A stretch of DNA of 64,000 nucleotides. It comes from Escherichia coli. GTDB taxonomy: Bacteria > Pseudomonadota > Gammaproteobacteria > Enterobacterales > Enterobacteriaceae. A program made the position numbers and the translations under genes. The DNA is taken from the NCBI RefSeq assembly GCF_001677475.2, contig NZ_CP015229.1. The stretch is one strand, 5' to 3'. Positions 27,950-42,105 of the stretch are shown here, piece after piece. Position 1 is the first letter of the stretch. Each line of letters begins with the position of its first letter. A model generated the notes under the pieces. The model did no database searches and was not told where the DNA came from. It worked only from the letters and a program-made list of their open reading frames with translations.

Positions 27950-28466
<517 letters not shown>

Positions 28467-28472
28467 TTTCTG

Positions 28473-29019
<547 letters not shown>

Positions 29020-29048
29020 TCGGTCACGGTCCATTAATACGACTTTGA

Positions 29049-29510
<462 letters not shown>

Positions 29511-29533
29511 TTCGTTATTCAACGAGACGTAAA

Positions 29534-29570
29534 AACGCCGACCACTGGTCGGCGTTTTGCTTTCTATTTT
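29534..29570. terminator. Bidirectional rho-independent terminator (rplI / yjfZ)
   Basis: AACGCCGACC-actg-GGTCGGCGTT flanked by A-run on the left and T-rich tract on the right. Confidence 0.65.
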
Positions 29571-29580
29571 TCGTCAGGTA

Positions 29581-30375
29581 TTAGTTTCGCAAGTAGATCC
29601 ATTCACCATTCTCTTGTGTCCATAATTCAGGATGGTTTGCTGGCGTTAGATGCATACGATCACTCCTTATGTCTCGGTCCTGCGGCACTCGCTCGAAACC
29701 CAAACCCGAGTAGATTGCTGCTGAACTTGATAAGGAACGCAGACCAATTTTCAAATCATGGGGTAAATCAGAATACGCGTTTAGCAATGCAGCAATGATG
29801 AATCCGAGGGCATTAGAAACGCCTGTAACAGTGCGAAGTTGGTCGATATAAAGATCGATTGTTGGTAGTTCAGATGACCAGCAATTAGGCATTTGGGCAG
29901 GAAGGGTTACAACGTATCCTATCGTTTGGCCGGTATAGTCTGGAGTACCATAACCTGGACCCAAAACAACCTCGTGTATTGTGTATTTACTGTTGGGTTC
30001 GAAGGATTCGACATCTTGCAATAAATATTTCAGTTCTGCGGTTAACCTCGCACCCGCGTAAGCTTTATTGTATTTCTGGGCGTGAATATTATCTAATGTA
30101 GCTTCATGGTTCCATCCAAAAGAATTATCACCATTCATTGTTATTCCATCGTAAGCATTACACCTCGTCGCTAACTTATTGAATGCTTGCCAGCCTGAGA
30201 GATCTAGTTTGTGGATCTCAACAGTATGTCTGCCATCGCAATTATGGTCTCTTCCACGATTTGAAAGTAATGTAGCGCGTGCGTATTGATGAAATTTTAA
30301 TTTTACTGGTTTGTCGGTGGACGAAAAACGGGGTGAATATGCAGGAAATGAATAAATAGTGGTTGGTAATGTCAT
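29581..30375 (-). CDS. yjfZ: uncharacterized protein YjfZ
   Basis: 264-aa ORF convergent with rplI, matching K-12 position and length from memory; no motif recognised. Confidence 0.6.
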   Translation of the reverse strand: MTLPTTIYSFPAYSPRFSSTDKPVKLKFHQYARATLLSNRGRDHNCDGRHTVEIHKLDLSGWQAFNKLATRCNAYDGITMNGDNSFGWNHEATLDNIHAQKYNKAYAGARLTAELKYLLQDVESFEPNSKYTIHEVVLGPGYGTPDYTGQTIGYVVTLPAQMPNCWSSELPTIDLYIDQLRTVTGVSNALGFIIAALLNAYSDLPHDLKIGLRSLSSSAAIYSGLGFERVPQDRDIRSDRMHLTPANHPELWTQENGEWIYLRN

Positions 30376-30645
30376 TGTATCGTTGCCTGTTTAATGTTTT
30401 TATAAATATCTCAGCTGAATGTTTACAGAATAAAGAATCGATATTAATAAAAATAAGTTTGTTTTCTGAAGTAGTGAAAATAGCGGATGGTGAAAGATAT
30501 TAATATCAAAAATCGCTCATTGTGGATATAACGATGCAGCAGGGAGGGGGGATATGATTGACAACGCGTTGGTAAGCGAGGTTCGATAACTCAAGCTTCT
30601 TTAAAAACGCCATAACCTCAATTATAGCGTTTTTATTTAAAATAA

Positions 30646-31923
30646 TTAGTGGGTAGCTAACTGTACTTGTGGTTCTTCATCTTTAACTTTGATAAGCGTC
30701 CACAACGCAATAGCACCAATAATGTCAAAGAAAGCCAGGGCAATAAAGAACGGCGCGAAGCCGATAATGTGAACGAATGCCCCGATGAACAGGTTGAAAA
30801 TCAACTGACCGCTCCACGCACAGGCTCCTGCCATACCCACTGCGGTAGCTACTTCGTCCTTTTTGAACAGATCGCCACCCAGAGTTGCTGCTACAGTAGA
30901 AAGACATTGATGCGAGAACGCGCCAATACTAATCAGTAATACGGCAATGTAGGGATTTTCGACAATACTCACCAGACCAATCGTCATCATAATGACGGCT
31001 GCAATAGTGAAGGTAATTCTTCGTGAGTTAATTAAACTCACGCCGCGATCGTGGAAGAACTTCGCGACAAAACCACTGGCTAAACAGCCGAGATCGCCCA
31101 GCAGGAAAGGCAGCCAGACGAACATGGCAATTTCTTTCAGGCTAAAATGCAGCGTTTCGACGAAGAAAATCGGCACCCAGAAGTTAATGGTTCCCCATGC
31201 CGGGTCTGCGAGAAAACGCGCGATGCCAATCCCCCAGAAATTACGTTGGCTGAGGATATGCTTGATTGACGTTTTTTCTTTCTTATCTGTTTTAAGATGC
31301 TGTTCTTGCCCTGATTCAATATAGTGGCGCTCTTCATCAGAAAGGCGTTTGGCATCTTTCGGATCTTTATAACAAAAGAACCAAAATAAAGCCGCGAGCA
31401 AAGCAAGGCTACCTGAAACAATAAACGCAAATTGCCAGCTATGAAACATAATGCACCAGGCAATCAACGGTGGAGCAAGCATCGCGCCGAGTGAGGTGCC
31501 CATATTGAAAACACCTGTCGCCACGCCACGCTCTTTTGCCGGAAACCATGTTGATGCGGTTTTTACACCTGCCGGAATTGCCGACGCTTCGCTGAAACCC
31601 ATCAGGGCGCGCATAAATGCCAGACCTGACCATGTTCCGGTTAGTGCATGGCCCATTGTCGCCAGGCCCCAAATTGCGGCACATATCGCAAAACTTAACT
31701 TCAGACCTACGGTATCAATAAAGAAGCCCATTACCGGTTGCCCTAATGTATAGGCCAACTGGAATGCACTGACAATCCATGAATATTGTTCTTTGGTTAT
31801 TCCGGTTGTCTCCATAATCGTTGGAGCCGCAATACCTAACGCCGTTCTGTCCAGATAATTGATTACAGTGATAAAGCATACGAGGGCAATCATATGCCAT
31901 CGATAATTCTTTATTTTATTCAT
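30646..31923 (-). CDS. MFS transporter, anion:cation symporter (ACS) type (hexuronate/galactonate/tartrate-permease-like)
   Basis: 425 aa, about 12 hydrophobic segments, N-terminal INYLDRTALGIAAP motif; AAGG SD 7 nt upstream. Confidence 0.75.
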   Translation of the reverse strand: MNKIKNYRWHMIALVCFITVINYLDRTALGIAAPTIMETTGITKEQYSWIVSAFQLAYTLGQPVMGFFIDTVGLKLSFAICAAIWGLATMGHALTGTWSGLAFMRALMGFSEASAIPAGVKTASTWFPAKERGVATGVFNMGTSLGAMLAPPLIAWCIMFHSWQFAFIVSGSLALLAALFWFFCYKDPKDAKRLSDEERHYIESGQEQHLKTDKKEKTSIKHILSQRNFWGIGIARFLADPAWGTINFWVPIFFVETLHFSLKEIAMFVWLPFLLGDLGCLASGFVAKFFHDRGVSLINSRRITFTIAAVIMMTIGLVSIVENPYIAVLLISIGAFSHQCLSTVAATLGGDLFKKDEVATAVGMAGACAWSGQLIFNLFIGAFVHIIGFAPFFIALAFFDIIGAIALWTLIKVKDEEPQVQLATH

Positions 31924-32015
31924 TTTTAAACCTTTTAATTATATTAATAAACCCTGGTTGTTGGTATTTCCATGTAATAGGCAATAAAAATCAGGTACAG
32001 AGAAAATATTGAAAA

Positions 32016-34088
32016 TTATTGTGTGTAAATGTCTCCCTTTAAAAAGTCTGGCCAGTTTTTTTCAAAGTAAATACCGTTAATACACGGTTGCATACGTAAA
32101 GACTTTACTTCGGTAATAAAAGAACCTTGCGAATATTGAATTGTTAATTTGTGATTTTTATCTTCAGCGAGTTCAGAGCGAAAACGCCATTCTTCTTTTA
32201 CGCCGCGACGAGTTTGTGGTAGGCATTTGCCTTGTGGATCAATAACCATCCGCGCCCCACGACTGCCGCCACCAGCATCAATATAATGCGTTAATTGTGT
32301 TAATACCGCGGCAGAAGTCAGCGCCATATGCCGCCACATAAACAGCTCGGAAACTTCACCCACATGTTTGATTGCCAATCCATGCCGTTGGACAAATTCG
32401 TTCAATAGCAGGGCATCGCGAGTGGCGCGTCGGACTTTATCGGCATGGCAAATAAATCCCGCATAGTCAGACATTCGTGCCTGAATTTTTTCTCTCACAA
32501 CCGACAACGGCATCCCGGTCCCGTTATCGTGCGCCTGAGTAATGATCTCTCTTATAGAAGCCAGTGCCGGAGCTGCCAGCTGTGCTATATCTCCATCAAT
32601 ATTCCGCTTTTGCGTGCAACCAATAAAACGTGCCAGACGCACGGCAAAAACCTGCCCGGCATTCAATGCCGCACCACCAGGGCGAGTGACGCCGTGTGTG
32701 CCAGCAACTTCCCCCACTGCAAAACAACCGGGCAGAGATGTTTGTCCCCAGATATCCACTTCAATGCCGCCATTCATATGCTGATTATTCATGGCAAACT
32801 GCAATGGCTGCGTGGTGAGATCGTAACCGTGCATCTTATACAGCGAGATAGACAGCGGATTCATTCGTTGCAGTCGTTCGATGGGCGATGGCGCCAGGGC
32901 GTCGTTATTTTCCAGATACGCGCGAACGTCGTCGTCCAGTCGTTCTAATGAGAATGGCAGGTCACCCGGCACAGGTTCAGGATTGCGATTGAAATCCATA
33001 AATACCTGACGCCCTGATTGCTGCTCTTGCGCCACCGCCATATCTAACAAGCTGGAGCCAAAATCCATTACCCGCGTGGCGTGGAACGGCCACTGATAGC
33101 CTTTACGGAAGATGTTTGAAGCCAGCTCCTGGGTGGTGCGATAGTAATCTGCGAGGAAGTTATACTCGTTGCCCTCGGCATCCACGGAATAGATATATGG
33201 GATCACTTGTACATAGGTGCCGGACAAATTCCACGGAAACGTGCTGCGCGGCGTGCCTATACCAAACTGGCTTTCGGTCAGATTAGTTAGTGTCAGGCCT
33301 TCCTCCAGCGCCAGCCCCAGCGAGCCAAAACATTTGTGTGGGTACACACTGTCGCGATAAAGCTCGCCCGGCCCGCCTGTTGCCAGTACCACATTGGGCG
33401 CAGTCACAATTGCCAGCCCCCACGGGTTATGGGCGCGGGAACCGGTTGCGAGGATAGCCCCGGCCACACGATCTTCGCCGTTTTCACCGCGTTGATGCAG
33501 CAGTTTAATCACCGTTGCACTGGTCAACAGTGGGATGGCGAGGCGCTGCACTTCTTCGAGCAATACTTTCACCATCAGACGAGAAGTGCGCGGCCCACAG
33601 GAGGTTGCGCGTCCGGCTTCGTCATGGTCGGTCTGATAACGGAGAATTGCACCATAGCGATCTTCCGGTAATTCCAGACCGAGATATTGCAGCCCGCCAA
33701 GGGTATGTAGGGAACCGACCGCTTCGACATACGCCGTGTCGTGATCCATCGCACCGCCGCTCGCCAGTGCTTCAGCAAGTTTTGCGAAGTTATCGCCGTT
33801 GCCCGCCGTTGCGGCGGTAAACAGCGTCTGTTTATCGGAACCGGAGCAGGCCGATGTTCCCATGTATAACCCGGCGGTGGCGATTAGCACATTTTGCTGG
33901 CGACGTTTCAGTTCAACCGCCGCACGTAATCCTGCCGCGCCGCTACCAACGACCAGAGCATCTGTTTGCCAGAGCGGGTAATCAACACCGTCCACCGTGA
34001 CAATTGACGTTGGCTCTGCTGACACAAAACCCTTCGGGAAAGTGACGTGCGTCAGCGCATCGAGGATGGCGTCATCAGTCTGGCTCAT
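32016..34088 (-). CDS. FAD-dependent oxidoreductase, fumarate-reductase/succinate-dehydrogenase flavoprotein-like, with extra C-terminal region
   Basis: 690 aa; N-terminal dinucleotide fold VVGSGAAGLRAAVEL; start overlaps upstream gene stop (ATGA). Confidence 0.7.
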   Translation of the reverse strand: MSQTDDAILDALTHVTFPKGFVSAEPTSIVTVDGVDYPLWQTDALVVGSGAAGLRAAVELKRRQQNVLIATAGLYMGTSACSGSDKQTLFTAATAGNGDNFAKLAEALASGGAMDHDTAYVEAVGSLHTLGGLQYLGLELPEDRYGAILRYQTDHDEAGRATSCGPRTSRLMVKVLLEEVQRLAIPLLTSATVIKLLHQRGENGEDRVAGAILATGSRAHNPWGLAIVTAPNVVLATGGPGELYRDSVYPHKCFGSLGLALEEGLTLTNLTESQFGIGTPRSTFPWNLSGTYVQVIPYIYSVDAEGNEYNFLADYYRTTQELASNIFRKGYQWPFHATRVMDFGSSLLDMAVAQEQQSGRQVFMDFNRNPEPVPGDLPFSLERLDDDVRAYLENNDALAPSPIERLQRMNPLSISLYKMHGYDLTTQPLQFAMNNQHMNGGIEVDIWGQTSLPGCFAVGEVAGTHGVTRPGGAALNAGQVFAVRLARFIGCTQKRNIDGDIAQLAAPALASIREIITQAHDNGTGMPLSVVREKIQARMSDYAGFICHADKVRRATRDALLLNEFVQRHGLAIKHVGEVSELFMWRHMALTSAAVLTQLTHYIDAGGGSRGARMVIDPQGKCLPQTRRGVKEEWRFRSELAEDKNHKLTIQYSQGSFITEVKSLRMQPCINGIYFEKNWPDFLKGDIYTQ

Positions 34089-35626
34089 GCGTCCTCCATT
34101 GGCGTAAACAGGCTACTTTCCATCAGGCGCGGCTGGTTGATAATTGGACGGAAAGCCATGAACGGCAGAATGTCGCGGTCAATCTCCACGCCCGGCGCGA
34201 TTTCAATTAATTCAACGCCTTCTGCCGTTAACTGAAACACCGCGCGTTCAGTGATATACAACACTTCCTGACCGCTGTGCTGTGCGTAGGCGGCGCTAAA
34301 AGTGATTTTTTCCACCTGAGTAACCAGTTTAGGGATTTGACCTGACTGGGCGATATGCAAGCCATCTGGCGTTACATCAATCTTGCTGCCTTTGGCGTCG
34401 AACGTGCCGCAGAACACCACCTTACGGGCGTTTTGCGCAATTTCGAGAAATCCGCCGGGGCCAATCAGATTGCCATTGAGATGGGAGACGTTGACGTTAC
34501 CGTACTGATCCATCTCTCCCATGCCGAGGAAGGTGATATCGATCCCTCCGCCACTGTAGAACTCAAATTGATCGAGTGATGGAATAATGGCATCGGCGTT
34601 GCGGGCGCAGCCGAAAAACGCATCATCCAGCATCATACCGTTATGCACGCCTTGCTCGACGCTCAGCCATAAACTTTGGTAAGGCACGCCTTCGCGCAGC
34701 GCTACTCCTGGAATGCCGCCGGGAATACCAAAGCCAAAGTTGGTTGAAGCGCCAGCTACCAGTTCGCGTGCTGCCCGACGGGCAATCAGGCGACGTACCG
34801 GATGACTAACCAGTTCAATAGCGTCGTTAGAACTCAGACGGCGATGTTGGCCGCTGATGGTCAGGTCGTAACCGCCAAGATAGGTTTGTGGCTGTTCGCG
34901 GTGTTCAACGATGCCATCAACCAGAATGCCCGGTAATTTGACTCGGCGTGGTTCAATCGCGCCAGCTTCCAGCACATCGCGTACCTGTACAAACACTTTG
35001 CCGCCGCTGTTGTGTGCTGCCAGCGCCATGGAATAGCTATCCATATCAATCGCTTCTTCTTCAAGGCTGACGTTGCCCCGAGGATCGGCATAAGTGCCAC
35101 GCAAAATCGCGTAATCGACTTTGAAAGGGCGATAACGAAGTTTGGTTTCACCGTCGATTTCAATCAGTTCTACCAGGTCGTCGGTAGTGCATTCATTCGA
35201 CTTACCGCCGCCATTGCGTGGATCAACAAACGATCCCAGCCCAACGTGGGTAAAAAGCCCCGGACGTCCGGCGCCGATCTCCCGTAGCAGTGCCTGAATC
35301 ACGCCACCAGGAAAACAATAGGCTTCAATCGCGTTATTTTTTACCAGCGCCTGCATTTTGGGTGACCAGGTAAAGTGTCCGGCAATAATGCGTTTGAGCA
35401 TTTCAGCATGAGCGAAGCGGTTCGTGCCTTTGCAGTCGCGATCGCCAATGCCCAGCGAGTGGATTAATGTCAGATCGCGCGGGTGTCCGGTTTGCAGGAA
35501 GCGCGCTTCAATGGCTGCCAGAATATGGTCGGCTTCCACCATGCCGCCGCCGTTACCGCTAATGGCAATGGTTGCGCCATCCTGAATTTGCGCCGCCAGT
35601 GCCTCGGCGGTTGTTATCTTACGCAT
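34085..35626 (-). CDS. CoA-transferase, family I-like (YdiF/propionate-CoA-transferase-like)
   Basis: 513 aa; overall resemblance to two-domain family I CoA-transferases; assignment by eye, needs HMM confirmation. Confidence 0.6.
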   Translation of the reverse strand: MRKITTAEALAAQIQDGATIAISGNGGGMVEADHILAAIEARFLQTGHPRDLTLIHSLGIGDRDCKGTNRFAHAEMLKRIIAGHFTWSPKMQALVKNNAIEAYCFPGGVIQALLREIGAGRPGLFTHVGLGSFVDPRNGGGKSNECTTDDLVELIEIDGETKLRYRPFKVDYAILRGTYADPRGNVSLEEEAIDMDSYSMALAAHNSGGKVFVQVRDVLEAGAIEPRRVKLPGILVDGIVEHREQPQTYLGGYDLTISGQHRRLSSNDAIELVSHPVRRLIARRAARELVAGASTNFGFGIPGGIPGVALREGVPYQSLWLSVEQGVHNGMMLDDAFFGCARNADAIIPSLDQFEFYSGGGIDITFLGMGEMDQYGNVNVSHLNGNLIGPGGFLEIAQNARKVVFCGTFDAKGSKIDVTPDGLHIAQSGQIPKLVTQVEKITFSAAYAQHSGQEVLYITERAVFQLTAEGVELIEIAPGVEIDRDILPFMAFRPIINQPRLMESSLFTPMEDA

Positions 35627-35635
35627 ACAATTTCC

Positions 35636-36412
35636 TTAGTGATTATGGAAGCTCACGCTACTTTTTTCGGCAAATGCCTGCGTCGCCTGCTGGCAATCCT
35701 GAGTGGCGGACATTAATCCAGCCAGTAACTGGTGTGGGTATTCAGCGTGTTTATTTTCCAGTGCCAGAATCAGCTGCTTAATATGCGCCAGTGCCACCGG
35801 ACCACATTTTTCCAGCTGCGCTAACTGGTTCGCCATCCAGCTTTCCACCTGTTCTTTTTCTACTACTTCATCAATTAAATTCGCCGCCTGGGCTTCATGC
35901 GCCGTCAGACGTTTACCTAGCATCAGCATCTGGCGACCGACCACTGGGCCGACCTGATTAATCACGCGTTCAATGCCCATCCAGCCAGGCACCATGCCGA
36001 GCATGACTTCCGGGTTAGAAAATTTCGCGCTGGGGCGAGCGATTCGAATATCGCAGCACAAGGCAAGTTCAATACCGCCGCCGATGGTATGACCGTTGAG
36101 ATTCGCAACCGTTAATTGCGGTAAATTGCGCAGGCGATTAAAAACGTCATTGCCGCGTTTAATCCATTTTCTGCCCATATCTAATGGCGAATAGGCCGAC
36201 CACGATTTAATATCACCGCCCGCACAAAAGAATTTATCGCCGATTGCCGTTAATTCGACTAATCGTAATGTGGTGTCGTTTTCAATTTCATTTAAATAAT
36301 GGTCGAGAGATTCAATCATCTCTTCGTTAATAGCATGACATTTCTCTTCACGGTTCAACGTCAGGCGGCAGGAAGCCGCCGCTCTGCTGAACAGAACGGG
36401 TTGGTCACTCAT
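35636..36412 (-). CDS. enoyl-CoA hydratase/isomerase (crotonase fold)
   Basis: 258 aa; crotonase signatures FCAGGDIKSW and GGGIELALCCD, plus PE motif (SNPEVMLGMVPG). Confidence 0.8.
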   Translation of the reverse strand: MSDQPVLFSRAAASCRLTLNREEKCHAINEEMIESLDHYLNEIENDTTLRLVELTAIGDKFFCAGGDIKSWSAYSPLDMGRKWIKRGNDVFNRLRNLPQLTVANLNGHTIGGGIELALCCDIRIARPSAKFSNPEVMLGMVPGWMGIERVINQVGPVVGRQMLMLGKRLTAHEAQAANLIDEVVEKEQVESWMANQLAQLEKCGPVALAHIKQLILALENKHAEYPHQLLAGLMSATQDCQQATQAFAEKSSVSFHNH

Positions 36413-36421
36413 GATTATTCC

Positions 36422-37264
36422 TTAGCAATAATTCGCGATGCGATCGACGCTAATATCCAGCGTGTTGTTAATATCTTTCTGCCACCAGTACGGTGAGAAT
36501 ATTTCCAGTTCAATAGCGCCATTAAATCCGGCGTTTTCAACCAGTCGACGAATTGACGGAATATTTATCACGCCATCTCCCGGCATTCCCCGGTCATTGA
36601 CCAGATCGGTGGTCGGCACTAACCAGTCGGAAACATGAAACGCGAGAATACGTTTTCCGGCGCGCAGGAGCTGGCTGGCCAGATCCGGATCCCACCAGAC
36701 ATGGTAAACATCCACAGCCACGCCGAGGCCAAATTCGCCATCGGGATCGAGTTCATCACACCAGTCCAGCGCCTGGCGTAACGTGCACAGGCAAGAGCGA
36801 TCGGCGGCGGTCATTGGGTGCAGTGGCTCCAGCGCAATCGGCACGCCAACGTCTTTCGAATGTGGCAGTAACTGGCGTATCCCTTGTTTCACCTGTTCCC
36901 GTGCTTCATACAGATCTTTTGTGCCCTGCGGTAACCCGCCAACCACCTGCATATAACAGGCGGCGTTCAGCACCGCTGCGTCGTCCAGCGCCCGGCGGTT
37001 ATCATCAATTGCCAGTTTGCGTTCCGCCAGCGTCGGCGCGGTGTAGTAGGTGCTACGGCATAAACCGGAAACGCGCATGTTATTGACGGCAAGCTGGCGG
37101 GCGATCTGCTGAAGATCTTCACCCTGCAACTCTCTGCGCCAGGGGGCGATCGCACCGATACCGCGTGCGGCACAGGCATCAATAATGGCGGGTAGCGGCG
37201 TTTTATAGCCCAGTGTTGCGGTATTGATACTGAATAAATCCGGGCGTTGTAACAGATCTCTCAT
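36422..37264 (-). CDS. xylose-isomerase-like TIM-barrel protein (sugar phosphate isomerase/epimerase or dehydratase family)
   Basis: 280 aa; resemblance to AP-endonuclease-2/xylose-isomerase-like TIM barrels by eye; needs HMM confirmation. Confidence 0.55.
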   Translation of the reverse strand: MRDLLQRPDLFSINTATLGYKTPLPAIIDACAARGIGAIAPWRRELQGEDLQQIARQLAVNNMRVSGLCRSTYYTAPTLAERKLAIDDNRRALDDAAVLNAACYMQVVGGLPQGTKDLYEAREQVKQGIRQLLPHSKDVGVPIALEPLHPMTAADRSCLCTLRQALDWCDELDPDGEFGLGVAVDVYHVWWDPDLASQLLRAGKRILAFHVSDWLVPTTDLVNDRGMPGDGVINIPSIRRLVENAGFNGAIELEIFSPYWWQKDINNTLDISVDRIANYC

Positions 37265-37273
37265 GATTCAGCC

Positions 37274-38065
37274 TCAGAAGCGCGGCATACTTAAGCCGCC
37301 GTCGATGGCGACCGCCTGACCACAGGTGTAAATCAGTTTACCTTCCGCCATCGCGCGGACGGTGGAGGCAATATCAGCCGGATAACCCCAACGTCCCCAC
37401 GGCACCAGACCTTTGGCAATCAGTTCGTCGTAATAAGCCGTTGCTGGAATAGTCATATCGGTTTTGATGAGACCAGGGCGCACTTCATAGACGCCAATTT
37501 GTTCGTTGCAAAGGCGAGCAGCAAACAGACGAGCAGCGGCAGAAACGGCGGTTTTGGCAATTGTGTATTCGCCGCGATTCATCGCCAGCATGATGGCGTT
37601 GATGGAACTGACAAAAATAATTGAGCGGTGCGGGAATTCTGTTTCTGGTTTTGGCTGTGCGAGCAGACGTTTACTGAATGCCTGTGCAAGGAAGAACGGT
37701 GCGCGGGTGTTAATGGCAATATTTTGGTCGAAGCTGTCTGGTTCCAGGTCGAGAAGGTCACCGCGTTTTTTCACTGAAATGCCTGCGTTGTTGAGCAGGC
37801 AGTCCAGACGTCCCCACTGGTTTTGCGCTGCGTCGAGCATCTCTTCATGCAGGGAGAGATCGCCAACATCGGCAGGGAAGCAAATCACTTCCACGCCTTC
37901 CGCCAGACATTCTTGTTGTGTGACATGTAATTTTTCAACGCTATCGGCATCCGGACGATCATTAATCAGCAGATTAAATCCGCCACGCGCAAGCTCCAGC
38001 GCACAGCCCTTTCCAATACCACGAGCGGCTCCGGTAATCACGGCAACAGGACGAGTGGATTTCAT
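37274..38065 (-). CDS. short-chain dehydrogenase/reductase (SDR)
   Basis: 263 aa; TGAARGIGKG cofactor motif, NNAG, catalytic Ser and YxxxK (YTIAK). Confidence 0.85.
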   Translation of the reverse strand: MKSTRPVAVITGAARGIGKGCALELARGGFNLLINDRPDADSVEKLHVTQQECLAEGVEVICFPADVGDLSLHEEMLDAAQNQWGRLDCLLNNAGISVKKRGDLLDLEPDSFDQNIAINTRAPFFLAQAFSKRLLAQPKPETEFPHRSIIFVSSINAIMLAMNRGEYTIAKTAVSAAARLFAARLCNEQIGVYEVRPGLIKTDMTIPATAYYDELIAKGLVPWGRWGYPADIASTVRAMAEGKLIYTCGQAVAIDGGLSMPRF

Positions 38066-38133
38066 ACAATAGCTCTCTTTTTTTGAATTTTGTTTCCTTA
38101 GTGATGATTAGCTTGCGACTGGAGGATAAAAAG

Positions 38134-38155
38134 ATCAACCATCTAGTTGGTTGAT
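38134..38155. promoter_or_regulatory. candidate TetR-family operator (perfect 8-6-8 palindrome)
   Basis: ATCAACCA-tctagt-TGGTTGAT in the 212-bp divergent intergenic region between the SDR operon and the TetR gene. Confidence 0.45.
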
Positions 38156-38277
38156 ATGCGATGACGATCACAGGACATTTGATAACCTGATGAAAGTACA
38201 AGTTTTTGCCCTTTTTTCTGAAGCTGAAATCAAATCAGGTTATGATAGTCACCACGAAGAGGTCGTGGGGAAGCGTT

Positions 38278-38925
38278 ATGTATATTGATACCAGCAACGT
38301 ACAGAGCCTGAAGGAAAAGCTGCTGTTATGCGCGGTTAATGAATTTGCCGAATATGGTTATGAAGGGGCCAGGGTCGATAATATTGTTAAGTCTGCGGGG
38401 TGTAGTAAACAGACGGTTTATCACCACTTTGGTAATAAAGAAAATTTATTTATTGAAGTACTGGAATATACCTGGAACGATATTCGAAAAAAAGAAAAGG
38501 CCCTTGATTTCTCAGATCTTCCGCCACAAAAAGCCATTGAGAAAATTATTGATTTTACATGGGATTATTATATTGCTAATCCCTGGTTTTTAAAAATTGT
38601 GCATAGTGAAAATCAAAGTAAAGGTGTGCATTATGCAAAATCACAGCGTCTCTTAGAAATTAACCATGCGCACTTGCAGTTAATGGAATCCTTATTGGAG
38701 GAAGGGAAGAAACACAATATTTTTAAGCCAGATATCGACCCATTGCAGGTGAATATTAATATTGCTGCGCTTGGGGGATATTATTTGATCAACCAGCATA
38801 CGCTTGGCCTGGTTTATCACATCAGTATGGTTTCACCCCAGGCACTGGAAGCCAGACGTAAGGTCATCAAAGAGACGCTCCTTAGCTGGCTTTTGGTTGA
38901 CCCCTCATCTACCGCGCACGAATAA
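38278..38925 (+). CDS. TetR/AcrR-family transcriptional regulator
   Basis: 215 aa from ATG 38278 (GGGGAAG SD upstream); N-terminal [31 protein letters not shown]; track ORF is N-extended. Confidence 0.8.
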
Positions 38926-39547
38926 AACTGCCATCCGGCTGACGGGTAAACAGGACCTGTTGATTATTCCCCGTATCAATGGTTAAGCCCGTCACCACGC
39001 CGCTGGCGTTCTGGCGGATTTTCACCATCTGCCCGTTTTGCAAATTACTCAGCGGCTTATCCGCGCCTTCTACCTGCGCCATTGCATAGACATCGGTAGC
39101 GGGCAGTCCGTGGTCGCGGAACAGCTGCGCCATCGTTTTACCGGGTTCGACACGGTAAGAGCGCCATTGATTATCAATTCCGCTATCTGGCTGGAATGGT
39201 TGCGTTTGGGTGGTTTGCGGCTGCTCTTCTGGCTGGCCTTCCTGTATTGGTTCTGGAGCGACCGGGGCCACCTGATCAGGATCATTTTGTGGCGTAACTA
39301 GCTGCGCCCGCAGCTGTTCTTCTGTCGGCAGTTGTGATTGCGACTGAATATCTAACTGCGCTTCACGCGTCACCACCGGCGCGTTGGGCGTATCATCAGA
39401 TGGAAGCAGAAATCCGACCACCAATACAATGGCGGCAATAATGATCCCCCGACGATGCATCGGCGGCAGCGGGTCCATGAAGCGAAAATTGTCCGGCGCG
39501 TGCCAGACTTTCTCCAGGGTTGGTTTTAGTTCAAAGCGCCCGGGCAT
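38909..39547 (-). CDS. ytfB: OapA/LysM-domain cell-division protein YtfB
   Basis: 212 aa from [18 protein letters not shown], strong AGGAGG SD; Pro/Gln-rich linker and C-terminal OapA-like domain. Confidence 0.85.
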
Positions 39548-39764
39548 GGTTTCCTCCTGCTCCGCGTCTTGTTCCTCAATCATAGCCTATGAATAAGCTA
39601 ACGCTATGATGTCCGTGGTAAACCCGCCTTTATTATATTCATACGGGATATTGCTATTGTTTCTTTTTCCCCGGGATTTGTCATCATTCCCGCGACAAAG
39701 TTTTACCCAAAGAAGTGTGGCTGATATGCTGCCCGCTACTTTATACCCTAAGAAAGGAAATACG

Positions 39765-40385
39765 ATGACCACCCCAACTTTTGACACCATCGAAGCGCAA
39801 GCAAGCTACGGCATTGGTTTGCAGGTAGGGCAACAACTGAGTGAATCTGGCCTGGAAGGGCTGCTGCCAGAAGCACTGGTTGCAGGCATTGCTGATGCGC
39901 TGGAAGGCAAACATCCGGCTGTTCCGGTTGATGTGGTGCACCGCGCGCTGCGTGAAATCCACGAACGCGCCGATGCCGTTCGTCGTCAGCGTTTCCAGGC
40001 GATGGCTGCTGAAGGTGTGAAATACCTGGAAGAAAACGCCAAAAAAGAAGGTGTAAATAGCACCGAATCTGGCCTGCAATTCCGCGTGATCAACCAGGGT
40101 GAAGGCGCAATTCCGGCACGTACCGACCGCGTTCGTGTTCATTACACCGGAAAACTGATCGACGGCACCGTGTTTGACAGCTCCGTCGCTCGCGGCGAGC
40201 CAGCTGAATTCCCGGTTAACGGCGTGATCCCTGGCTGGATTGAAGCACTGACTCTGATGCCGGTAGGTTCTAAATGGGAACTGACTATCCCGCAGGAACT
40301 GGCATATGGCGAGCGTGGCGCAGGCGCGTCCATCCCTCCGTTCAGCACCCTGGTGTTTGAAGTCGAACTGCTGGAAATCCTCTAA
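39765..40385 (+). CDS. fklB: FKBP-type peptidyl-prolyl cis-trans isomerase
   Basis: 206 aa from [20 protein letters not shown] domain at C-terminus. Confidence 0.9.
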
Positions 40386-40692
40386 GCAGCGCATTCTGTT
40401 CCCCTCGAGCCAGAGGGGAGCAGGCATTCAGCAATAAACCCTTCAGTTTGCCAAACGGCGCTATTTTGTGTTGCAAAGACCCCGTAAGCGTGTATTTTTG
40501 TGAGCTGTTTCGCGTTATCACCGTGATATGACACTCACTTTAAACATAAAATTAACATTAGATCTAAATCTTAGTATTCATCCCGCGTATTGTTACCTAA
40601 TATCGATGAGTCCCGATACAGATTCGTCGTATCATAGACTGACTAAAGGCCGTAGAGCCTGAACAACACAGACAGGTACAGGAAGAAAAAAC

Positions 40693-42105
40693 ATGGTAGA
40701 TCAGGTAAAAGTCGTTGCCGATGATCAGGCTCCGGCTGAACAGTCGCTACGGCGCAATCTCACAAACCGACATATTCAGCTTATTGCCATTGGCGGTGCC
40801 ATTGGCACAGGGTTGTTTATGGGGTCCGGCAAAACGATTAGCCTTGCCGGGCCGTCGATCATTTTCGTTTATATGATCATTGGTTTTATGCTCTTTTTCG
40901 TGATGCGGGCAATGGGGGAATTGCTGCTTTCGAATCTGGAATACAAATCTTTTAGTGACTTCGCTTCCGATTTACTCGGGCCGTGGGCAGGATATTTCAC
41001 CGGCTGGACTTACTGGTTCTGCTGGGTTGTAACCGGTATGGCAGACGTGGTGGCGATCACGGCTTATGCTCAGTTCTGGTTCCCCGATCTCTCCGACTGG
41101 GTCGCCTCGCTGGCGGTGATAGTGCTGCTGCTGACGCTCAACCTCGCCACCGTGAAAATGTTCGGTGAGATGGAGTTCTGGTTTGCGATGATCAAAATCG
41201 TCGCCATTGTGTCGCTGATTGTCGTCGGCCTGGTCATGGTGGCGATGCACTTTCAGTCACCGACCGGTGTGGAAGCGTCATTCGCGCATTTGTGGAATGA
41301 CGGCGGCTGGTTCCCGAAAGGTTTAAGTGGCTTCTTTGCCGGATTCCAGATAGCGGTTTTCGCTTTCGTGGGGATTGAGCTGGTAGGTACAACAGCTGCG
41401 GAAACCAAAGATCCAGAGAAATCACTGCCACGCGCGATTAACTCAATTCCGATCCGTATCATTATGTTCTACGTCTTCGCGCTGATTGTGATTATGTCCG
41501 TGACGCCGTGGAGTTCGGTAGTCCCGGAGAAAAGCCCGTTTGTTGAACTGTTCGTGTTGGTGGGTCTGCCTGCTGCCGCCAGCGTGATCAACTTTGTGGT
41601 GCTGACCTCTGCCGCTTCTTCCGCTAACAGCGGCGTCTTCTCTACCAGTCGTATGCTGTTTGGTCTGGCGCAGGAAGGTGTGGCACCGAAAGCGTTCGCT
41701 AAACTCTCTAAGCGCGCAGTACCCGCGAAAGGGCTGACCTTCTCTTGTATCTGTCTGCTCGGCGGCGTGGTGATGCTGTATGTGAATCCCAGCGTGATTG
41801 GCGCGTTTACGATGATTACAACCGTTTCCGCGATTCTGTTTATGTTCGTCTGGACGATTATCCTTTGCTCGTACCTGGTGTATCGCAAACAGCGTCCGCA
41901 CCTGCATGAGAAATCAATCTACAAGATGCCGCTCGGCAAGCTGATGTGCTGGGTATGTATGGCATTCTTTGTGTTCGTGGTCGTGCTGCTGACACTGGAA
42001 GATGATACCCGCCAGGCGCTGCTGGTTACCCCGCTGTGGTTTATCGCTCTGGGGCTGGGCTGGTTGTTTATTGGTAAGAAGCGGGCTGCTGAACTGCGGA
42101 AATAA
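40693..42105 (+). CDS. cycA: D-serine/D-alanine/glycine APC-family transporter
   Basis: 470-aa polytopic membrane ORF. Confidence 0.93.
   Translation: MVDQVKVVADDQAPAEQSLRRNLTNRHIQLIAIGGAIGTGLFMGSGKTISLAGPSIIFVYMIIGFMLFFVMRAMGELLLSNLEYKSFSDFASDLLGPWAGYFTGWTYWFCWVVTGMADVVAITAYAQFWFPDLSDWVASLAVIVLLLTLNLATVKMFGEMEFWFAMIKIVAIVSLIVVGLVMVAMHFQSPTGVEASFAHLWNDGGWFPKGLSGFFAGFQIAVFAFVGIELVGTTAAETKDPEKSLPRAINSIPIRIIMFYVFALIVIMSVTPWSSVVPEKSPFVELFVLVGLPAAASVINFVVLTSAASSANSGVFSTSRMLFGLAQEGVAPKAFAKLSKRAVPAKGLTFSCICLLGGVVMLYVNPSVIGAFTMITTVSAILFMFVWTIILCSYLVYRKQRPHLHEKSIYKMPLGKLMCWVCMAFFVFVVVLLTLEDDTRQALLVTPLWFIALGLGWLFIGKKRAAELRK

Follow-up and report, generated by a model that had tools for sequence, protein, structure and literature searches.

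Which compound does Escherichia coli degrade with the seven genes that can lie between rplI/yjfZ and ytfB? We examined this locus in E. coli NZ_CP015229.1, where it occupies positions 30646-38925 of the 64,000-nucleotide (nt) stretch that was analysed (the window). Its genes encode a TetR-family regulator, a short-chain dehydrogenase/reductase (SDR), a TIM-barrel protein, a crotonase, a coenzyme A (CoA)-transferase (CoAT), a flavin adenine dinucleotide (FAD)-binding flavoprotein and a major facilitator superfamily (MFS) permease (Table 1). An earlier reading of the sequence (the original prediction) had assigned the seven proteins to these families and could not place the set in a named pathway. 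The family names are upheld by profile, PDB and motif comparisons, and our homology and literature searches agree that the set maps to no named pathway: no equivalog in NCBIfam, no solved structure in the PDB and no paper in the searchable literature library assigns a function to the locus. Among the substrates that had been guessed, sugar acids are clearly the best supported, and a plain fatty-acid-like series of hydration and redox steps the least. We propose that the genes form a TetR-controlled and probably CRP-controlled operon for the breakdown of a sugar acid taken up from outside, most probably a six-carbon acid resembling a hexuronate, with (de)hydration assisted by a CoA thioester, a reading to which we give a probability of about one half.

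Conserved partners of the flavoprotein gene

The flavoprotein belongs to a large family, with 418 clusters (50% identity) at E<1e-30 that span the Proteobacteria and the Planctomycetes-Verrucomicrobia group. We surveyed its neighbouring genes at 80 genomic loci and on several contigs; open reading frames (ORFs) were called with a crude longest-ORF script, and single calls are approximate. Among relatives with 53-60% identity to the flavoprotein, Brenneria displayed the gene order TetR-SDR-TIM-FAD-transporter, and a metagenomic relative the order TetR-SDR-FAD-TIM followed by a tripartite ATP-independent periplasmic (TRAP) transporter. The order SDR-Gfo/Idh/MocA-TIM-(MFS)-FAD was found in Pseudescherichia, Phytobacter, Mangrovibacter, Lentisphaeria, Opitutia and a beta-proteobacterium. 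In Rhizobiales and Rhodobacteraceae, the flavoprotein gene was accompanied by genes for a LacI regulator, two GMC oxidoreductases, a levoglucosan-dehydrogenase-like Gfo protein, a KdgK-like kinase and a sugar ATP-binding cassette (ABC) transporter. More distant homologs (36-41%) in Phycisphaerae were part of SDR-Eda aldolase-BNR_4-FAD-KdgK clusters. One further metagenomic contig carried PfkB and LacI neighbours, which are uninformative alone and useful only beside the 80-locus survey.

The CoA enzymes showed a separate distribution. CoAT and crotonase genes recur with the flavoprotein gene in alpha-, beta- and delta-proteobacteria. One beta- and one delta-proteobacterial locus combine CoAT-crotonase and TIM-FAD pairs with a TRAP transporter, an AcrC-like acyl-CoA dehydrogenase and electron transfer flavoprotein (ETF). 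On the Rhizobium plasmid pRCCGE531c, we found a co-directional run consisting of CoAT, enoyl-CoA hydratase (ECH), aldehyde dehydrogenase (ALDH), ABC transporter, two GMC, Gfo, FAD and sugar kinase genes, the first three of which overlap. The kinase is KdgK-like (250 bits), one GMC enzyme is choline-dehydrogenase-like, and the ABC binding protein matches 4r2b with 554 bits and is related to the 'glucose-binding protein' 2b3b. We infer that this operon imports a glucose-like neutral sugar, and that the choline-dehydrogenase-like GMC enzyme and ALDH fit the oxidation of a primary alcohol to an acid for the transferase. The enterobacterial operon would bypass the alcohol-oxidation stage by importing the acid itself.

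Taken together, these contexts indicate that SDR, TIM barrel and flavoprotein constitute a core that works without CoA enzymes among sugar-oxidising and 2-keto-3-deoxygluconate (KDG)-type genes, and that CoAT and crotonase are a second module that joined the flavoprotein repeatedly in separate lineages. The single block of five CoA-ester genes assumed in the original prediction thus separates into two parts.

Two uptake systems at one position

The permease matches TIGR00893 (ACS family) with 315 bits, below the subfamily cut-off of 395. Among solved proteins it is nearest to DgoT, the D-galactonate symporter of E. coli (142 bits), followed by sialin and VGLUT of the SLC17 family. At the equivalent position, the permeases of Klebsiella and Salmonella are 50-51% identical to it, against 78-93% for the enzymes, which suggests that the permease gene was replaced or diverged far more rapidly than the other genes of the operon. 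Within E. coli, the transporter is exchanged. In strains with a TRAP system, the DctQ, DctM and DctP genes follow the flavoprotein gene at the position of the MFS gene, and the gene for the TRAP binding protein occurs in 1468 of the 5426 complete E. coli genomes (about 27%). The two arrangements part at the 3' end of the flavoprotein gene; the final ~80 codons of this gene differ as well (82% identity bin). The transporter is a swappable cassette, and both E. coli systems are predicted to carry organic anions; the anion uptake that had been proposed stands.

The ligands of related TRAP binding proteins bear on the nature of this anion. The top PDB relatives are 4ovr, 4x8r, 4n8y, 4n15, 4n91, 4mij/4mhf and 4x04, at only 195-245 bits. 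The ligand of 4X8R is glucuronate and that of 4N8Y galacturonate (PMC11668362); glucuronate is bound by 4N91, and either of the two acids by 4MHF (PMC7660916). The remaining entries are presumably hexuronate binders too.

Two further observations concern the TRAP genes. In E. coli NZ_CP027586.1 (2897009-2900630), the gene for the large permease is split by IS1. A second TRAP binding-protein gene is present elsewhere in about 1000 E. coli (near 731000), with a short stretch 79-81% identical to the gene of this locus.

The TIM barrel and the SDR

The TIM-barrel protein matches PF01261 (E=8e-38) and is closest to PDB 3qc0/3ju2 (S. meliloti SMc04130, 3e-86) and 7vpf (Paenibacillus, 6e-61). Foldseek matched its AlphaFold2 model (predicted local distance difference test score (pLDDT) 95.8) to 3qc0 with a template modelling (TM) score of 0.92. 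The positions of the metal ligands, E146, D185, H210 and E252, are invariant in 28 homologs. On these comparisons, the protein is a xylose-isomerase-like PF01261 barrel with a predicted Glu-Asp-His-Glu metal site. All three PDB entries are titled merely 'putative sugar isomerase'; 7vpf, considered as a source of function, bears only the title 'novel putative sugar isomerase', and a literature search on it gave no functional study.

The SDR scores 418 bits against NF009386 (cut-off 250), a profile named '3-ketoacyl-ACP reductase' without experimental backing. It displays all motifs of a classical SDR: TGAARGIG at residue 11, NNAG at residue 92, and the Ser-Tyr-Lys triad as S153 and Y167xxxK171. 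The nearest solved proteins are the uncharacterised SDRs 4da9 and 4one (S. meliloti, Brucella). Identity with KduD was rejected, as TIGR01832 gave 116 bits against a cut-off of 338.85.

The flavoprotein

The flavoprotein matches PF00890 (E=2e-28) and lies far below all NCBIfam cut-offs (TfrA, 124 versus 718; NadB, 107 versus 639). Its AlphaFold2 model (pLDDT 90.6) has the four-domain FrdA/SdhA architecture, and the best matches in a fold search were FrdA/SdhA (TM 0.65-0.78, 15-19% identity), with no closer relative in the PDB. His437 and Arg469 align with the 'AHYTCGG' and 'GANRMASNSL' motif positions of NadB. On the other hand, residues 274-276 read QFG, without the His of 'QFHPT', and no profile alignment was obtained for the capping domain. 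There is no His at the position of covalent FAD attachment. We found no gene for an Fe-S partner in the locus, and no signal peptide or cytochrome, FMN-binding or NADH domain in the protein. The scores below cut-off, the lost 'QFHPT' His and the unaligned capping domain indicate a member of the superfamily that is neither a fumarate reductase/succinate dehydrogenase flavoprotein nor an L-aspartate oxidase; the covalent-FAD His and the Fe-S partner expected of the former are missing in addition. A KstD-like desaturase was also considered and is not supported by the fold: the top 50 fold matches contained FrdA, SdhA, NadB and AprA proteins and no 3-ketosteroid dehydrogenase, although its chemistry would be compatible.

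The CoA-transferase and the crotonase

The CoA-transferase matches PDB 2ahu (YdiF) with 8e-114 and is 39% identical to YdiF of strain K-12. Its Glu324 aligns with Glu333 of YdiF ('SVEQG'/'TVETG'), the catalytic residue of that enzyme. By these measures it is a family I enzyme (YdiF/Pct/SCOT), so that activation by CoA transfer and not by ligation, as had been proposed, stands. It is not the equivalog of Staphylococcus FadX (382 bits versus a cut-off of 750 for NF052271). The genes around K-12 ydiF, in the order ydiN-ydiB-aroD-ydiF-ydiO ... ydiQRST-fadK, include those for quinate/shikimate dehydrogenase, 3-dehydroquinate dehydratase, an MFS transporter, acyl-CoA dehydrogenase and ETF, making the ydi locus another poorly understood pairing of ring/sugar-acid enzymes with CoA enzymes.

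The crotonase matches many crotonase profiles, none above an equivalog cut-off, and its best solved match is the 3-hydroxypropionyl-CoA dehydratase 5zai (138 bits). Both hydratase glutamates are present (GGGIE115L and NPE135); by their motifs, E115 and E135 presumably correspond to E144 and E164 of rat ECH.

A proposed route and the points against it

In the scheme that we favour, the substrate would relieve TetR repression at the palindrome in front of the operon, and the acid would be imported. The family I CoA-transferase may then load the acid, or a close product of it, onto CoA. The crotonase could exploit the acidified alpha-proton of the thioester for a dehydration or hydration at the alpha-beta bond, after which CoA would be handed to the next substrate molecule, the same logic as in carnitine metabolism by CaiB and CaiD. 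The SdhA-like flavoprotein is expected to oxidise the C-H bond adjoining the carboxylate, the metal-dependent TIM barrel to carry out a keto-isomerisation and the SDR a keto-reduction. The product would be a KDG-type 2-keto-3-deoxy acid, which KdgK and Eda of the cell, encoded outside the window, could convert to pyruvate and glyceraldehyde-3-phosphate. The order of the steps, the reaction of the flavoprotein and the end product are guesses. More tentatively still, the majority of E. coli strains, Klebsiella oxytoca and some Salmonella may possess an undescribed route for a hexuronate-like acid in which CoAT and crotonase replace metal-dependent dehydratases or lyases, and in which a family resembling SdhA and NadB carries out a new oxidation of a sugar or sugar acid. 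None of the seven proteins gave an NCBIfam match to the known hexuronate pathways (UxaC/UxuAB/UxaAB and Udh/Gci).

Several points weigh against this scheme. E. coli already harbours complete glucuronate and galacturonate pathways, and plain hexuronates are therefore unlikely substrates; uronates that are modified or differ in stereochemistry, or keto or deoxy acids related to them, are to be expected instead. At 195-245 bits, the TRAP ligand could be another cyclic or polyhydroxy acid. No enzyme of the operon has a characterised close relative, and the substrate is one that we infer from sequence comparison. The scheme gives the flavoprotein no necessary role, and its KDG end point is drawn from kinase and aldolase genes that occur in other phyla and not at this locus. 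CoAT and ECH in the company of an AcrC-like acyl-CoA dehydrogenase and ETF would fit a small 3-hydroxy acid fragment, not the sugar acid itself. Finally, the neighbours at the 80 loci depend on the crude ORF calls mentioned above.

Alternative readings

The original prediction leaned towards a route resembling beta-oxidation, in which a non-sugar carboxylate would receive CoA by transfer, be desaturated by the flavoprotein, hydrated by the crotonase and oxidised to the 3-keto stage by the SDR, leaving cleavage to housekeeping thiolases. A CoA-transferase, a crotonase with both glutamates and an SDR are all present, the transferase is nearest to YdiF and Staphylococcus FadX, TetR is weakly similar to fatty-acid regulators, and CoAT-ECH stands with acyl-CoA dehydrogenase and ETF genes in one beta- and one delta-proteobacterial locus. 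We nevertheless consider this route unlikely. The flavoprotein is of the SdhA/NadB class, whose characterised members act on free acids and are not known to act on acyl-CoAs, and in Brenneria, metagenomes and several phyla the set of SDR, TIM barrel and flavoprotein is found with no CoA enzyme. The locus contains no thiolase, the TIM barrel would be left without a role, and all other contexts are sugar-catabolic. Less probable again is a reductive electron sink of the cai kind, with an unsaturated or hydroxy acid passing through CoA esters and a fumarate-reductase-like flavoprotein reducing the enoate during anaerobic growth in the gut. The layout does parallel caiTABCDE (transporter, CoA-transferase, crotonase, flavin reductase), the fold of the flavoprotein is closest to FrdA, and flavoproteins of the SdhA/FrdA superfamily serve as enoate reductases in gut anaerobes. 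What makes us regard such a sink as very improbable is that the flavoprotein has no signal peptide, no electron-input domain (cytochrome, FMN-binding or NADH) and no Fe-S partner, that the aerobic Rhizobium and Rhodobacteraceae commonly have orthologs, at 53-58% identity, within operons for sugar uptake, and that the CRP-type site fits catabolism of a carbon source better than respiration.

A third alternative is a carbocyclic substrate, namely a polyhydroxy acid like quinate, shikimate or a cyclitol carboxylate. Here the SDR would form a ketone, the TIM barrel would act as a dehydratase of the 3-dehydroshikimate or inosose type, the flavoprotein would desaturate, and the CoA enzymes would work on the CoA ester of the ring carboxyl group. 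Such ring acids resemble pyranuronates and are thus compatible with the TRAP and MFS evidence, and YdiF, the closest characterised CoA-transferase, is encoded in K-12 next to ydiB and aroD. The Gfo/Idh/MocA neighbours weakly match inositol dehydrogenase. Distant structural neighbours of the TIM barrel include IolI and the QuiC1-type TIM/HPPD fusion 5hmq, which we take to be a 3-dehydroshikimate dehydratase, and its only NCBIfam match is IolO, but these likenesses are remote (15-20% identity, 29 bits). The KdgK-like kinase and Eda of related clusters point instead to open-chain keto-deoxy acids, the Rhizobium cluster encodes an ABC binding protein of the glucose type, and no enzymes for an aromatic ring or a cyclohexane-carboxyl-CoA are encoded nearby. 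We judge a carbocyclic substrate to be improbable, and retain the hexuronate-like acid as the preferred reading.

Regulation

The TetR gene is divergent from the operon, as had been described. Its orthologs carry PF00440 and TetR_C_29, with many TetR matches in the PDB. A 22-bp palindrome (38134-38155) is always located between the TetR and SDR genes; mismatches to it number 0-1 among E. coli, Klebsiella oxytoca and Salmonella, and 3 in E. albertii. Pseudescherichia, Phytobacter and Mangrovibacter have a related core ahead of the SDR gene. When seven sequences of Escherichia, Klebsiella and Salmonella are aligned, the palindrome and the adjoining CRP-like box make up the longest conserved block. 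The palindrome is a probable TetR operator. The left half of the CRP-like sequence is a perfect TGTGA in Klebsiella and Salmonella; TGCGA-N6-TCACA is probably a CRP site, which would place the operon under control of cyclic AMP-CRP.

Distribution, ancestry and decay

The enzyme core was detected at no less than 80% coverage in 3114 of the 5426 complete E. coli genomes (about 57%), and the whole locus including the MFS gene in 1659. Carriers include the uropathogenic E. coli 536 and strain 2012EL-2448, presumably an O104:H4-type outbreak strain. Klebsiella oxytoca and some Salmonella enterica also have, between ytfB and rplI, the divergent TetR gene and the order SDR-TIM-ECH-CoAT-FAD-permease; the E. 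coli enzymes are 78-93% identical to their Klebsiella and Salmonella counterparts. The term 'accessory' used in the original prediction is therefore misleading; the locus is not a strain-specific island, and most likely an ancestral enterobacterial catabolic operon.

The gene order rplI-yjfZ-ytfA-ytfB given for K-12 is correct; nothing but yjfZ and ytfA, the latter annotated as a pseudogene, lies in this interval. K-12 ytfA matches the 3' part of the TetR gene and is a remnant of the regulator. The site shared with K. oxytoca and Salmonella, along with the presence in 57% of E. coli, indicates that K-12 is a deletion derivative. In the literature searched, the sole mention of ytfA scores its presence or absence; the lack of the operon in the K-12 reference strain explains how it escaped the K-12-centred functional literature. 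K-12 and O157 have both retained TetR fragments alone, O157 with an additional IS609 element. In O157-type genomes (EDL933 and others), the remnant is split by this IS200/IS605 (IS609) element, which carries tnpA and a gene for a TnpB RNA-guided endonuclease. Shigella boydii GCA_031665775.1 (3400-14800) has kept TetR and SDR intact, only 207 residues of the TIM barrel remain, and the rest of the locus is replaced by several IS630-type and other transposase genes. Matches to the 207-residue TIM barrel had raised the possibility of a second, paralogous locus; they turned out to be the same locus, truncated amid insertion sequence (IS) elements, in Shigella boydii and some E. coli.

The allele in the window is unusual. 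Its enzyme genes (32500-38000) display 86-96% DNA identity to those of each of the 3152 complete E. coli carriers, the best at about 94-95%, while the flanking rplI, yjfZ and fklB regions (28000-30500 and 39500-41000) are 99-100% identical to E. coli genomes. The differences in the enzyme genes are nearly all synonymous, with a synonymous divergence (dS) of 0.2-0.35, compared with 0.02 for fklB. Diverged enzyme genes between near-identical flanks indicate a rare, old allele of the operon in an ordinary E. coli background. A divergent patch was also present in cycA (41000-42000). The rplI-proximal side is variable. Here and in K-12 it contains yjfZ (DUF2686; 29581-30375); strain 536 has a helix-turn-helix regulator and a HipA-family toxin with a frameshift, and Klebsiella and Salmonella encode an EamA transporter there.

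The ratio of non-synonymous to synonymous divergence (dN/dS), calculated relative to three E. coli alleles, was 0.01-0.13 for all seven genes, at dS 0.12-0.35. These low ratios and the intact ORFs reveal genes that are not decayed and are under strong purifying selection. Decay of the ORFs in most genomes, named in the original prediction as an outcome that would speak against it, was not seen.

Gene layout

The seven ORFs lie exactly at the coordinates first reported, without internal stops (Table 1), and RefSeq annotates the same gene lengths in E. coli 536 and ChlosBP-23-1. The start of the TetR gene, ATG at 38278, agrees with the RefSeq gene length. Catalytic motifs are present in SDR, crotonase and CoA-transferase. 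The five enzyme genes are tightly packed. From the SDR gene through the TIM-barrel and crotonase genes to the CoA-transferase gene, neighbours are spaced by 9 nt; the CoA-transferase and FAD genes overlap by 4 nt, which suggests translational coupling of these two. Some E. coli records contain one protein (1078 or 1043 residues) with both CoA_trans and FAD_binding_2 domains, presumably owing to read-through or a frameshift at this overlap. The MFS gene begins 92 nt after the FAD gene, and the 3' end of the TetR gene overlaps that of ytfB by 17 nt.

Table 1. Genes and putative regulatory sites of the locus in the window (aa, amino acids).
Feature	Position	Strand	Description
MFS organic-anion permease	30646..31923	-	425 aa, ACS/SLC17-like
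FAD flavoprotein	32016..34088	-	690 aa, cytoplasmic; orphan branch of SdhA/FrdA/NadB superfamily
Fused family I CoA-transferase	34085..35626	-	513 aa, YdiF/Pct-like
Crotonase-family enoyl-CoA hydratase/dehydratase	35636..36412	-	258 aa
Xylose-isomerase-like TIM barrel	36422..37264	-	280 aa, 'putative sugar isomerase' family
Classical SDR oxidoreductase	37274..38065	-	263 aa
22-bp palindrome ATCAACCAtCTAGtTGGTTGAT, probable TetR operator	38134..38155	.	divergent promoter region
CRP-like site TGCGA-N6-TCACA	38157..38172	.	abuts palindrome; assigned by consensus only
TetR/AcrR-family regulator	38278..38925	+	215 aa, divergent from operon

Comparison with known systems

By its architecture, the locus is an ordinary regulated catabolic operon; in the literature that we searched, no function has been assigned to its pathway or to the orphan flavoprotein family. 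An operon present in more than half of the complete genomes, under purifying selection, served by two uptake systems and broken by IS elements in Shigella displays the pattern expected of a determinant of a nutrient niche in the gut. Naming its substrate would add a pathway to strain-level metabolic models. Two families would also receive their first function: the large one of the flavoprotein, and that of the 'putative sugar isomerase', for which three orphan crystal structures exist.

A similar overall design is found in the carnitine operon caiTABCDE. It, too, unites a specific transporter with a flavoprotein and with a crotonase whose thioester substrate is formed by CoA transfer, and it recycles CoA from product to substrate. 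CaiB belongs to transferase family III and CaiA is an acyl-CoA dehydrogenase, whereas the transferase of our locus belongs to family I and its flavoprotein resembles SdhA and NadB; the locus has no ligase or CaiE, and possesses an SDR and a TIM barrel in addition. An enterobacterial precedent for CoA thioesters of sugar acids is the deoxyribonate pathway of Klebsiella michiganensis, in which a sugar acid is degraded via acyl-CoA intermediates (PMC6365646). That cluster shares MFS uptake, a CoA-transferase and a hydroxyacyl-CoA dehydrogenase, but contains a CoA-synthetase, a thiolase, a lactonase and a glycerate kinase, and has no SdhA-like flavoprotein, TIM barrel or crotonase; with another gene set at another locus, it was ruled out as the counterpart of the operon described here (PMC6365646).

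With respect to the single enzymes, NadB, FrdA and SdhA share with the flavoprotein the four-domain fold and the His/Arg pair of the carboxylate pocket, and NadB also the non-covalent FAD site. They differ in sequence (15-19% identity, unrelated capping domain) and by the 'HPT' His and the Fe-S subunit that are missing from the flavoprotein. The KduI/KduD-KdgK-Eda route comprises an aldose-ketose isomerisation, reduction to KDG by an SDR, a kinase and an aldolase, and corresponds to the end of the pathway proposed here. KduI is a cupin, as opposed to the xylose-isomerase-like TIM barrel of the locus, the SDR is not KduD, and the locus has no kinase or aldolase of its own. Finally, the acrylate/reductive 3-hydroxypropionate module, consisting of Pct/YdiF, 3-hydroxypropionyl-CoA dehydratase and acryloyl-CoA reductase, likewise places a YdiF/Pct-type transferase beside a short-chain crotonase. 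The E. coli locus differs in having no acyl-CoA reductase, and its transferase-crotonase pair sits in a sugar-type cluster with anion uptake.

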